Shown: positions 2,770 through 21,139 of the stretch, piece by piece | How positions within the stretch are numbered: the stretch's first letter is position 1 | Layout of the letters: every line of letters begins with the position of its first letter | Virus record (IMG/VR): IMGVR_UViG_3300046534_001374 | Location: 32,001 to 96,000 of that record | Origin: a virus | DNA length: 64,000 nucleotides | Strand: one strand, 5' to 3' | Position numbers and translations under genes: made by a program | Notes under the pieces: model-generated | What the model was told of the DNA's origin: nothing | Seen by the model: the letters and a program-made list of their open reading frames with translations, nothing else | Databases searched by the model: none

Positions 2770-2865
2770 TATAAAGTTTCTGATAAAACTATCGCAAACT
2801 GGTGTAAAAGTTATGAACTCAAAAAGCCAACCAGAGGTTTTTGGGTCAAAGAAAATAATTCGTAG
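2770..2865 (+). pseudogene. C-terminal HTH remnant of a homing endonuclease
   Basis: YKVSDKTIANWCKSYELKKPTRGFW*, resembling the VSDxxxxKWCK...PxRGYW tail of phage HNH endonucleases; no ATG nearby. Confidence 0.5.
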
Positions 2866-2867
2866 TC

Positions 2868-2975
2868 GGTGCGCCCAATCAGATTCGAACTGATAACCTA
2901 GCCTTTATCCACGTAACACACTAAGATCAGTATGTTACGAAAGAGAAGCTTACTCTACCCTTGAGTTATAAGCGC
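2868..2975 (-). tRNA. tRNA (Ile-like, or Lys) with 34-nt hairpin insertion in the anticodon loop
   Basis: Acceptor GCGCTTA/TGGGCGC-A-CC, D arm ACTC/GAGT, anticodon stem AGCTT/AGGCT, T arm ATCAG-TTCGAAT-CTGAT; loop 41 nt instead of 7. Confidence 0.75.
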
Positions 2976-2982
2976 ATATTAT

Positions 2983-3073
2983 TGGCACAAGCAATAGGAT
3001 TCGAACCTACATAGTGTATTTCCAGTTACGGTATTTATTCACACTGCTTAGAAGGTAGGACCGATATACTTGC
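2983..3073 (-). tRNA. non-canonical tRNA-Arg(TCT), truncated D region with enlarged variable region
   Basis: GCAAGTA/TGCTTGT-G-CCA, loop CT-TCT-AA, T arm GTAGG-TTCGAAT-CCTAT; only 8 nt where the D arm should be. Confidence 0.7.
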
Positions 3074-3079
3074 TTAATT

Positions 3080-3120
3080 TGGTATTTTACAGGTCTACCT
3101 GCTTCTGACTATACCTAGCC
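3080..3120 (-). ncRNA. 41-nt pseudoknot-like mini-RNA, copy 1
   Basis: GGCTAGGTATAGTCAGAAGCAGGTAGACCTGTAAAATACCA; 38/41 identical to 7828-7868. Confidence 0.6.
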
Positions 3121-3128
3121 AATTTTTG

Positions 3129-3204
3129 ATGCGAGAGTTGGAATCGAACCAACGACACAACTATCTTCTCGATAGTTTGCTCTATCCAATTGAGCTATCT
3201 CGCA
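3129..3204 (-). ncRNA. tRNA-like RNA without a valid anticodon loop
   Basis: TGCGAGA/TCTCGCA acceptor, canonical D and T arms; anticodon arm is a 7-bp stem with GAGAA loop; no encoded CCA. Confidence 0.7.
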
Positions 3205-4072: not shown

Positions 4073-4148
4073 TAGTAGTTTCCCCCAGATTCGAACTGAG
4101 AAACATCAGTTATTAACCGACTGCTTTACCTAATTTGCATAGGAAACT
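4073..4148 (-). tRNA. tRNA-Ile(AAT), atypical
   Basis: AGTTTCC/GGAAACT-A-CTA, GTCGG-TT-AAT-AA-CTGAT, CTCAG-TTCGAAT-CTGGG. Confidence 0.7.
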
Positions 4149-5456: not shown

Positions 5457-5529
5457 TGGTAGCTCGTCCGAGAATCGAACTCGGCTGGAAAGCATATGAA
5501 ACTTTCTACTTCACCTGAAGTAACGAGCA
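5457..5529 (-). tRNA. tRNA-Met(CAT) (or Ile2) with compact D-loop
   Basis: TGCTCGT/ACGAGCT-A-CCA, CTTC-AGGT-GAAG D arm, TT-CAT-AT loop, CCGAG-TTCGATT-CTCGG. Confidence 0.75.
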
Positions 5530-7618: not shown

Positions 7619-7635
7619 TTAAAATATGACTTACT

Positions 7636-7706
7636 CTAACCTCTGGAATTGAACCAGAGTCTGCCGCTTTATAAGCCGCCGTAATTTCCAATTATACCAA
7701 GTTATT
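7636..7706 (-). pseudogene. tRNA-like element with ATA loop and defective acceptor
   Basis: D arm GTA..TAC, GCGGC-TT-ATA-AA-GCGGC, TCTGG-TTCAATT-CCAGA; only 5-bp acceptor, no CCA. Confidence 0.45.
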
Positions 7707-7749: not shown

Positions 7750-7824
7750 TGAAGTCAAGAGTTAGATTCGAACTAACGACACTCCCTCAATTAAAGGCTG
7801 CTCTAACCACTGAGCTATCTTGAC
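7750..7824 (-). ncRNA. tRNA-like RNA without a valid anticodon loop (paralogue of 3129-3204)
   Basis: GTCAAGA/TCTTGAC-T-TCA, canonical D/T arms, arm CCTTT-AATT-GAGGG. Confidence 0.7.
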
Positions 7825-7827
7825 TTA

Positions 7828-7870: not shown

Positions 7871-8043
7871 TGGTGTCCCATGTGGGGATTCGAACCCTAC
7901 TCACATTATATCCTTTGTCAATTACTAATGCATTTTCTTTGACACTCTATTTCCTGTGGGCCGATACTTCATCTTACGACTTCTTCGGGCACACTTCTTA
8001 CACTACGTTTAAGTAGTAGCTCTAGCCATTGAGCTAATGGGAC
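7871..8043 (-). ncRNA. 173-nt tRNA-like RNA with about 100 nt of extra domains
   Basis: GTCCCAT/ATGGGAC-A-CCA, GCTC/GAGC D arm, GGG-TTCGAAT-CCC T arm, several hairpins between. Confidence 0.7.
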
Positions 8044-8113: not shown

Positions 8114-8206
8114 TGGAGCGGAGGAACCGATTCGAACGGCTATCTGTTCTCAGTTGTATAAGGTTAGGCTTGGATTCGCCCTGTGCTGCCATTACACCAC
8201 CTCCGC
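8114..8206 (-). tRNA. atypical tRNA-Gly(TCC)
   Basis: GCGGAGG/CCTCCGC-T-CCA (U73, Gly-like), 8-nt loop GAATCCAA, 24-nt variable region. Confidence 0.65.
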
Positions 8207-19462: not shown

Positions 19463-21139
19463 TTAGTCGGCACAACTTTCGCAAGTATCCCAAGCTGCGC
19501 CATTCTTTTCGATGGCAGCATGTCCTTGCGGATAATAGTAATACAAGGTCTTGACATTAATAGACCAAGCATACTTGTGGATTTCGTAGATATCTTTCAT
19601 TGTATAGTTTGGTCTATTGCAAAGGTTGATACTCTGAGCCATGTCAATATGAACTTGAGCATCAGCGGCAAGATCAAGAATATCTTTCGGTGAAACCTCG
19701 TCAAAGGTTCTATAAATACTTTTCTCTTCATCGGTCAAGATATCCAGATGTTGGACAGATCCAAGATTTACAAGAATAGACCCCCAAACTTCTTTTGTGT
19801 TTTCTCCTTTAGATTCCAACAATTTCATCAAATCGGGATTTCTGAAAGTAGTTTGGATACCTGCTAATTCCATAACGTAGTAGTTTGATCTACGAACTTC
19901 TCTACCAGCAGAAGCATCACATAAGAACGCTGTTGACTTATTCGGAGCTACTATACCCAAACTAACGTTGCGTCTCACCAGACCAGCTTCTACACACATT
20001 GCAGGAGAACCCAGTTTCTCACCCATCTCCAAGGTATAATCTTCACCACATTGTCTAATGGTTTTGTAAATTTCCTTGTTGAGGAATCTGGATTGAATAC
20101 CACCGTATGAAGCACCCTTGCTCTGGAAATAGGAATGCAATCCCAAAGTTCCCAAACCAATATCGCGCTTCTCGATAGCAGATCTTCTAGCCTTTTCCAT
20201 GAAAGGAATACCTTCAGTCAATCTGATAAATTCCGAAACGTTGATATCAAGATATGCATAACAATCTTTGATAATTTGTGGATCAGCTTTGATACGATCC
20301 CAGTGCTTCAAGTTCAAAGACGCAATAACACACACGAAAGATTTGTCATCATATTTAGGTGTCAATACTTCTGTGCAAATGTTGGTGCTCTCTACAGAAT
20401 GTCCAAGGTTTTTATAAACAGGAGATTGGTTTTTATTACAGTTGTCAACGTGAAGGAGATATGTTTTACCAGTTTCCAAACGCTCCTTCAAAACACGCAA
20501 GTATCTCTTCTTCAGTTCTTTATCGGTCTTAATCCTTTCATCGAAACCGCTAGGTAGAATCACACCAATGTTATTAGAAACAAGTGGATCTGATTTATCT
20601 GGGTTCTTCTTCGAAGCTCGATCCATCACTTCATTGAATTCTTTATCATCGATAGAAATGAAAGGAACAGAGTATCCCCTTCTAGCACTTCCTTGTGAAA
20701 CTTTCTGAGCAGTTCTTACACCATCTTCAATCCAATCAAGTTTAGAGTTGGTATAGAAGTTATCCTTTTCCAAGAAAGTTCCGCCATCATAAAGATTAGT
20801 GTAGTCAATACCGACACCACCACCAAGCTTGGACATCATAGCAGTTTCACCCAAAGAGTAATAGATACCTTTGATTGAGTTTTCTGGGTTGATGATAAAA
20901 CAAGAAGCTGGTAGGGGAGTTGTCCCCTCTACCTTTCTTCCCAAGTTAGCCCATTGTGGCGTTGAAGGACTTAGTATTTGTTCCTTGATATAGTATTCAA
21001 TTCTTTCCTGCAATCCCTCGTAATAGTCTGATTCATAGTTACCCACTACCCGACCCATTTCGCTAATTCTGTCATCTAGTGACAGTCCTCCTAAATAGTT
21101 CTTTTTATTTAAGAACTCTAATTGTTGTTTTCCGAACAT
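19463..21139 (-). CDS. nrdA: ribonucleotide reductase class I alpha (no ATP cone)
   Basis: SCF, GGGVG, TNICTE, APNKST, KTLYY, C-terminal CESC. Confidence 0.95.
   Translation of the reverse strand: MFGKQQLEFLNKKNYLGGLSLDDRISEMGRVVGNYESDYYEGLQERIEYYIKEQILSPSTPQWANLGRKVEGTTPLPASCFIINPENSIKGIYYSLGETAMMSKLGGGVGIDYTNLYDGGTFLEKDNFYTNSKLDWIEDGVRTAQKVSQGSARRGYSVPFISIDDKEFNEVMDRASKKNPDKSDPLVSNNIGVILPSGFDERIKTDKELKKRYLRVLKERLETGKTYLLHVDNCNKNQSPVYKNLGHSVESTNICTEVLTPKYDDKSFVCVIASLNLKHWDRIKADPQIIKDCYAYLDINVSEFIRLTEGIPFMEKARRSAIEKRDIGLGTLGLHSYFQSKGASYGGIQSRFLNKEIYKTIRQCGEDYTLEMGEKLGSPAMCVEAGLVRRNVSLGIVAPNKSTAFLCDASAGREVRRSNYYVMELAGIQTTFRNPDLMKLLESKGENTKEVWGSILVNLGSVQHLDILTDEEKSIYRTFDEVSPKDILDLAADAQVHIDMAQSINLCNRPNYTMKDIYEIHKYAWSINVKTLYYYYPQGHAAIEKNGAAWDTCESCAD

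Follow-up and report, generated by a model that had tools for sequence, protein, structure and literature searches.

The window analysed here, a stretch of 64,000 nt, comprises bases 32001-96000 of the 139,595-bp IMG/VR record IMGVR_UViG_3300046534_001374, whose completeness is estimated at 65%. Its source is a large, uncultured, myovirus-like phage with homologs of gp46/gp47, gp25, ribonucleotide reductase and proteins of the rIIB neighbourhood. Cultured phages are very distant, with at most 25% identity in the SbcC-like protein. ARAGORN reported about 30 tRNA or tRNA-like genes in the record, all on the minus strand, and the gene at 2868-2975 (window coordinates, as throughout unless indicated) sits within this minus-strand run, near which we did not find a terminator-like site. 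Read along the minus strand, the locus consists of the genes for a 97-aa and a 65-aa protein, an odd Ser-like tRNA (3128-3204), a mini-RNA (3080-3120), an odd Arg-like gene (2983-3073) and a tRNA gene whose anticodon loop carries a 34-nt insert (2868-2975). Just upstream of the window start, a contig of the same phage encodes a 416-aa protein with a PARP-type ADP-ribosyltransferase domain beside tRNA clusters (L006:9325-10575).

Two protein searches led only to one related lineage, represented by the contigs L013 and L014, in which the 97-aa protein encoded 470 nt upstream of the insert-bearing tRNA has its relative (71% identity). A locus-level search with three proteins returned nothing closer than 43% identity. 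An exhaustive profile search with the 97-aa neighbour yielded 68 distant homologs, and the three that we inspected lie on T4-like contigs without this tRNA cluster. The neighbourhood in L013 matches that in the window: a 98-aa gene is followed by an odd Ser-like tRNA, a 41-nt mini-RNA, a tRNA(CAU) and a tRNA-Arg(UCU). As the neighbouring proteins of the two lineages are merely 65-71% identical, the branch leading to the window phage must be long. Contigs of the window phage itself are at least 99.8% identical to each other, corresponding to a near-clonal population, and do not differ at all between 2685 and 3210. The phage is present in the JGI samples 3300060907, 3300047667, 3300054693 and 3300054696 and in the SRR284167xx-284174xx study. 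Two Logan contigs from different runs (L007 and L011) end at position 2979, 4 nt before the tRNA, and a third (L038) starts at 2771, so that the breaks flank the gene; these may be population variants or may merely reflect coverage.

The insert-bearing gene (2868-2975, minus strand) extends over 106 nt to the discriminator base A73 at position 2870, after which CC is encoded at 2869-2868. Its 5' part (2943-2975) contains the 5' strand of the acceptor stem, the D arm, the 5' strand of the anticodon stem and the loop bases C32, U33 and C34. The 3' part (2870-2908) continues with A35, U36, A37 and A38, followed by the 3' strand of the anticodon stem, the variable loop, the T arm, the 3' strand of the acceptor stem and A73. 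Between the two lies the insert (2909-2942), which is composed of UUU, a hairpin (2912-2939) and UGG. The hairpin has 12 bp, of which 10 are Watson-Crick and two are G-U pairs, and an AUCU loop. The anticodon loop thus reads CUCUUU, the 28-nt hairpin and UGGAUAA, and 41 nt separate the two strands of the anticodon stem; a 7-nt loop that could present a triplet arises solely after removal of 34 nt.

Apart from the insert, the gene has the properties of an ordinary tRNA. The Rfam tRNA model (RF00005) spans 2870-2975 from end to end (model positions 1-71) with 44.6 bits and an E value of 1e-8, well above the gathering cut-off of 29 bits, and in its alignment 38 inserted nucleotides are assigned to the anticodon loop. 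ARAGORN called a tRNA-Ile(gat) with a 34-nt intron when introns were allowed and made no call at 2868-2975 when they were not. The minimum-energy fold of the tRNA comprises the acceptor, D, anticodon and T stems together with the 12-bp hairpin and its 4-nt loop (-36.1 kcal/mol, z = -4.1), a value equalled by none of 200 shuffled sequences. All four stems are paired, with 21 of 21 cloverleaf pairs intact, and the conserved D- and T-loop bases are present. Five metagenome contigs that were assembled independently from different samples (L006, L008, L009, L010 and L012) share exactly these 108 nt, which are therefore not an assembly artefact. These results bear out an initial, sequence-only reading of the locus, which had described an otherwise intact cloverleaf with a 34-nt hairpin in its anticodon loop. 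It had also noted that removing 34 nt would give CU-GAU-AA, CU-CAU-AA or CU-CUU-AA depending on the register, which we found as well, and had left the choice among the three open.

This choice could be made by comparison with the tRNA at L013:948-1020, the neighbourhood ortholog of the window tRNA, which is identical at 60 of 72 bases outside the insert and has the loop CUCAUAA. In a MAFFT alignment with insert-free orthologs, the two genes are separated by a single gap of 34 columns, located exactly between CTC and ATAA. The ortholog's loop indicates that the interrupted ancestral anticodon was CAU, rather than GAU or CUU, and by this alignment the 34-nt insert splits the anticodon between C34 and A35. 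Assignment of the interrupted anticodon as CAU and of the insertion point as C34/A35 by means of an insert-free ortholog is the new result of this comparison. Since the ortholog lacks the insert, the latter is best understood as a lineage-specific gain into a working tRNA. Pattern scans with the 5' half, the 3' half and the joined, insert-free form detected insert-free CAU look-alikes in the contigs L015, L035, L022 and L017; the same scans detected neither another insert-bearing copy nor an insert-free allele of the window phage. All seven anticodon-loop bases flanking the insert are unchanged relative to the ortholog, for which the probability by chance is roughly 0.3 at 17% divergence.

With respect to its identity, the gene is, as judged from sequence comparison, a genuine tRNA gene encoded by the phage and belongs to the tRNA-Ile2 type, which has a CAU anticodon and an AUA-reading body. 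In tRNAs of this type, TilS converts C34 to lysidine and IleRS does the charging. The E. coli IleRS identity elements named earlier, A73, C4-G69, U12-A23 and C29-G41, are all present, and with the addition of G3-C70 the assignment to an isoleucine-type tRNA holds. The pairs G3-C70 and C4-G69 stem from an acceptor stem in which GCGCUUA is paired with UGGGCGC, with U5-G68 here instead of C5-G68. Silva et al. (2006; PMC1635315) found that G3-C70 (not C3-G70) and a frequent C4-G69 distinguish tRNA-Ile(CAU) from the Met and fMet tRNAs. Correspondingly, the phage's other CAU tRNA (5457-5529) has C3-G70 and would be of the Met type. The second CAU tRNA of L013 also has G3-C70, however, which indicates that the G3-C70 rule may be weak in phages. 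The 3' half of the window tRNA resembles the T4-type tRNA(CAU) of RB69, and a BLAST search of phages with the tRNA gave generic T-arm matches only. While the ortholog in L013 keeps its CAU intact, C34 of the window tRNA is set apart from A35 and U36. In the phage's long ORFs, AUA accounts for 23% of the Ile codons, and ARAGORN found no other AUA-reading tRNA in the record, so that a working tRNA-Ile2 would be useful to the phage.

Several features point to selection on the tRNA body. In an alignment of four tRNAs, 96 of 96 pair cells are standard, and nine pairs show double changes. Three of these pairs, A7-U66, A10-U25 and A52-U62, are unique to the window tRNA and are G-C in the other three, and such compensatory double changes on its own branch suggest that the cloverleaf has been under selection in the window lineage. 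The three changes could, however, predate the insertion. The hairpin alone is considerably more stable on the sense strand (-13.7 kcal/mol, z = -5.8) than on the antisense strand (-8.4 kcal/mol, two mismatches); both of its non-Watson-Crick pairs are G-U on the tRNA strand and mismatches on the opposite strand. Such a strand bias is consistent with the hairpin being maintained as an RNA structure. As the insert is known from one near-clonal population, the hairpin offers no covariation and thus no proof of selection after the insertion. A long branch without broken pairs argues against an old pseudogene, though not against a very young one.

The insert-bearing gene is surrounded by other unusual tRNA-like genes. 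The Ser-like gene 150 nt upstream (3128-3204, minus strand) is tRNA-shaped, and its 'anticodon' stem has 7 bp and closes a loop of 5 nt, GAGAA. Its counterpart at L013:821-897 retains this shape with the loop GUGAA and two double compensatory changes in that stem, a covariation which suggests that non-decoding tRNA look-alikes are conserved and under selection in this lineage. The Ser-like gene is immediately followed by the 41-nt mini-RNA (3080-3120, minus strand), which ends in ACCA and has a counterpart at L013:~900-942; the changes in its central hairpin keep the pairing (CAGGUAGACCUG versus UGGGUAAACCCG). The Arg-like gene (2983-3073, minus strand) has well-formed acceptor and T arms, encodes its CCA, lacks a D arm and has a weak anticodon stem around CUUCUAA. 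It scores 22 bits with the Rfam model and has a fold z of -0.9; a normal tRNA-Arg(UCU) is located nearby in L013 at 1102-1175.

Further odd tRNA-like genes were observed in the record and on other contigs. Anticodons starting with A (AAU twice, AUA and AAA), which are unusual in bacterial-type tRNAs, were assigned by ARAGORN to genes at 4075-4148, 7635-7705 and 7751-7825 (minus strand) and at genome position 19992-20081, and some of these tRNAs have imperfect stems. Two oversized tRNA-like genes lie at 7871-8043 and 8114-8206 (minus strand), called by ARAGORN as an Ala(tgc) tRNA with a 79-nt 'intron' and as a 93-nt gene with a 2-base 'anticodon', respectively; neither matches the Rfam tRNA model at E values up to 1. 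Two IMG/VR contigs, 182 kb and 51 kb long (L042:~2480-2590 and L045), carry another phage tRNA-like gene with normal acceptor, D and T arms and a long, odd middle section with a small hairpin, GAATCTA...TAGATTC. At L016:2266-2390, the 5' half of a metagenome tRNA is followed by CTCAAAAT and then by long non-tRNA sequence, possibly an intron of the group I type within the anticodon loop.

To characterize the insert itself, we looked for further copies and for known families. No second copy was detected in the window, the genome, the IMG/VR contigs or 185,579 species genomes, and the hairpin was accordingly rejected as a mobile or host-derived element present in any of these sets. A 14-mer match at genome position 137219 has no hairpin around it and is probably fortuitous. 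None of the other tRNAs in the record contains the insert, and Rfam gave no match to an intron or self-cleaving ribozyme family in 2850-3110 at E values up to 10. A plus-strand reading frame at 2671-2865 with the look of a DNA-binding tail was considered as the remnant of a homing endonuclease, but Pfam and PHROGs returned nothing significant for it.

The bulge-helix-bulge motif consists of a 3-nt bulge, a 4-bp helix and a 3-nt bulge at the splice sites. The fold of the window tRNA does not contain this motif; it has a 3-bp helix (UCU with GGA) flanked by loops of 1/3 nt and 2/1 nt, and inspection did not reveal an alternative 4-bp pairing that would create it. The two junctions of the CAU register are directly opposite each other across one base pair. 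Excision at the hairpin base by RNase P and RNase Z was rejected by inspection because it would leave a 12-nt loop instead of a 7-nt loop, as was a 2-nt staggered cut of the RNase III type, which would leave a loop of 6 nt or 11 nt. An RNA ligase or endonuclease elsewhere in the genome, which the initial reading had named as something to look for, did not turn up: searches of the 139.6-kb record for T4 Rnl1, Rnl2, RtcB and the splicing endonuclease (EndA) with PF01974, PF09414, PF01139 and PF09511 gave no match, the Rnl1 search with PF09511 having no positive control. An AAA_33-type kinase, RegB (likewise searched without a positive control), a CCA-adding enzyme and a TilS-type PP-loop domain were not found there either. 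Given that a third of the genome is missing from the record (completeness about 65%), the failure to find ligase genes carries little weight.

So far, the findings may be explained in several ways, among which we tentatively rank first an unspliced, non-decoding tRNA-shaped RNA as our best guess. This ranking is based on the fact that such an RNA needs no novel machinery, has conserved precedents 150 nt away and should be stable. Engineered tRNAs with a hairpin in place of the anticodon stem-loop undergo processing in E. coli and are stable there (Ponchon and Dardel; PMC3753655), and an unspliced 108-nt RNA should accumulate likewise. The lack of a ribozyme match, of a recurring insert and of a ligase or endonuclease match also supports a product that stays unspliced. 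Among the points against it, the seven unchanged loop bases are what an intron would require, and the loss of a decoder would be costly with AUA at 23% of the Ile codons and no second AUA reader in the record. Both agree better with a protein-spliced mini-intron, which we consider possible, if less probable. Here, an endonuclease and an RNA ligase of phage or host would restore tRNA-Ile2(CAU), or tRNA-Ile(GAU) if the cut occurred one base earlier. In favour of this explanation are also the flawless body with its Ile-type features, the fact that taking out exactly 34 nt gives the CUCAUAA loop of the ortholog, and the short, non-ribozyme introns described as 'enigmatic' in tRNAs of Lak megaphages (PMC6784885). 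It is weakened by the missing bulge-helix-bulge and the directly opposed cut sites of the CAU register, and by the lack of genes for an endonuclease, Rnl1, Rnl2, RtcB, an AAA_33-type kinase or RegB in the 139.6 kb. Moreover, dedicated machinery would serve a single site, as the insert is unique, the insert is not tRNA-shaped like those of Lak, and RNase P and RNase Z would not produce the proper loop. A slightly narrower version, namely a true intron between bases 34 and 35 that is removed by an endonuclease and an RNA ligase in a bacterial cell, and hence a protein-dependent route of tRNA splicing without a ribozyme core or bulge-helix-bulge, appears a little more doubtful still. In that case, splicing might also control the timing with which the AUA decoder is supplied.

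The tRNA may instead have been killed by foreign palindromic DNA that inserted recently, leaving a young pseudogene whose decay or deletion is yet to come. We regard this as rather unlikely, although the insert occurs in one lineage only and is absent from the relative, the anticodon itself is split, the cluster contains other aberrant tRNA-like genes such as 2983-3073, and the near-identity of all copies is compatible with a recent event. All 33 pairs are intact, the gene scores highly with Rfam, and neither broken stems nor lost conserved bases were found. Where the hairpin departs from canonical pairing, the sense strand has G-U in both cases. At least five assemblies of different samples show the form to be fixed, and on a branch as long as that implied by the 65-71% identity of the neighbouring proteins an early inactivation should have left mismatches. 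It is very improbable that the insert is a self-cleaving RNA, be it a collapsed or minimal group I intron or one of another kind. The sequence-only reading had considered a collapsed group I remnant in view of the GAU register, in which U is the final base of the 5' exon and G that of the insert, matching group I splice sites. This idea is now disfavoured, as 34 nt are too few for the core, no family matched, the ortholog-defined CAU register ends the 5' exon in C, the relative L013 lacks an intron, and the phage group I introns known by 2014 were all located in protein genes (PMC3984707). Explanations beyond these four account for a small remainder of the probability.

If the insert indeed stays in the RNA, as in the unspliced product that we favour, the gene would be transcribed within the tRNA run and released by the usual tRNA end-processing enzymes. 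The product would then be a stable, tRNA-shaped molecule of 108 nt that accumulates in the cell, with an anticodon arm lengthened to about 20 bp by the 5-bp stem, the 3-bp helix and the 12-bp hairpin. Such an RNA would be unable to read codons and would join the lineage's set of anticodon-less tRNA look-alikes. It might use its acceptor, elbow and identity elements, all of them intact, to tie up a host or phage factor that recognizes tRNAs, candidate binding partners being defence nucleases, toxins and modification enzymes, and would presumably be maintained by selection.

According to textbooks, the tRNA introns of bacteria and phages are group I ribozymes that splice themselves. Inserts as short as the one described here cannot self-splice. 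If it is removed, bacteria or their viruses would possess an uncharacterised, protein-based route of tRNA splicing; if it is kept, phages would make tRNA look-alikes by plugging the anticodon, and such look-alikes could be decoys against host defences that cut tRNAs. The case is minimal and clean, with one hairpin, an exact insertion point and an insert-free ortholog, and the two outcomes correspond to RNAs of 108 nt and 74 nt.

Among known systems, the short non-ribozyme introns of Lak megaphage tRNAs (Devoto et al. 2019; PMC6784885) are similar in that a short insert, too small for a group I intron, lies in the anticodon region of a phage tRNA for which insert-free alleles or orthologs exist. 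In contrast to one Lak example of 93 nt with a tRNA-like T arm, the insert described here is a bare 12-bp hairpin within 34 nt, and while several Lak tRNAs, in different cohorts, carry inserts, this one is found in one tRNA of one lineage, between bases 34 and 35. Group I introns of bacterial tRNAs also interrupt the anticodon loop of a bacterial-type tRNA (PMC3984707), but these ribozymes, with their P3-P9 core, typically measure about 200 nt or more, whereas the insert has 34 nt and no Rfam match. The same review, from 2014, places all phage group I introns then known in protein genes and none in phage tRNA genes. The protein-spliced introns of archaea and eukaryotes (PMC4090602) are short, extend the anticodon arm and are removed by an endonuclease and a ligase. 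Unlike these, the insert lies at 34/35 instead of 37/38, has no bulge-helix-bulge, is not accompanied by an endonuclease gene that we could find, and belongs to a bacterial virus. The tRNA of RB69 annotated as 'tRNA-Met, CAU-anticodon' (AY303349, 74868-74941), a T4-type tRNA-Ile(CAU), shares C4-G69, C29-G41 and a similar variable loop and T arm, but its gene is uninterrupted and the overall identity is modest. The engineered 'tRNA scaffold' likewise keeps the acceptor, D and T arms and has a longer hairpin in place of the anticodon stem-loop; it is man-made, whereas the window tRNA arose naturally.

A further parallel lies within the locus itself. Like the insert-bearing tRNA, the gene at 3128-3204 and its counterpart at L013:821-897 combine a tRNA body with a non-decoding anticodon arm and are encoded among real tRNAs. 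They differ in that the Ser-like gene is conserved between lineages with covariation, while the insert-bearing tRNA is known from one population. Comparable to such anticodon-less, tRNA-shaped RNAs are the stable RNA species 1 and 2 of T4.
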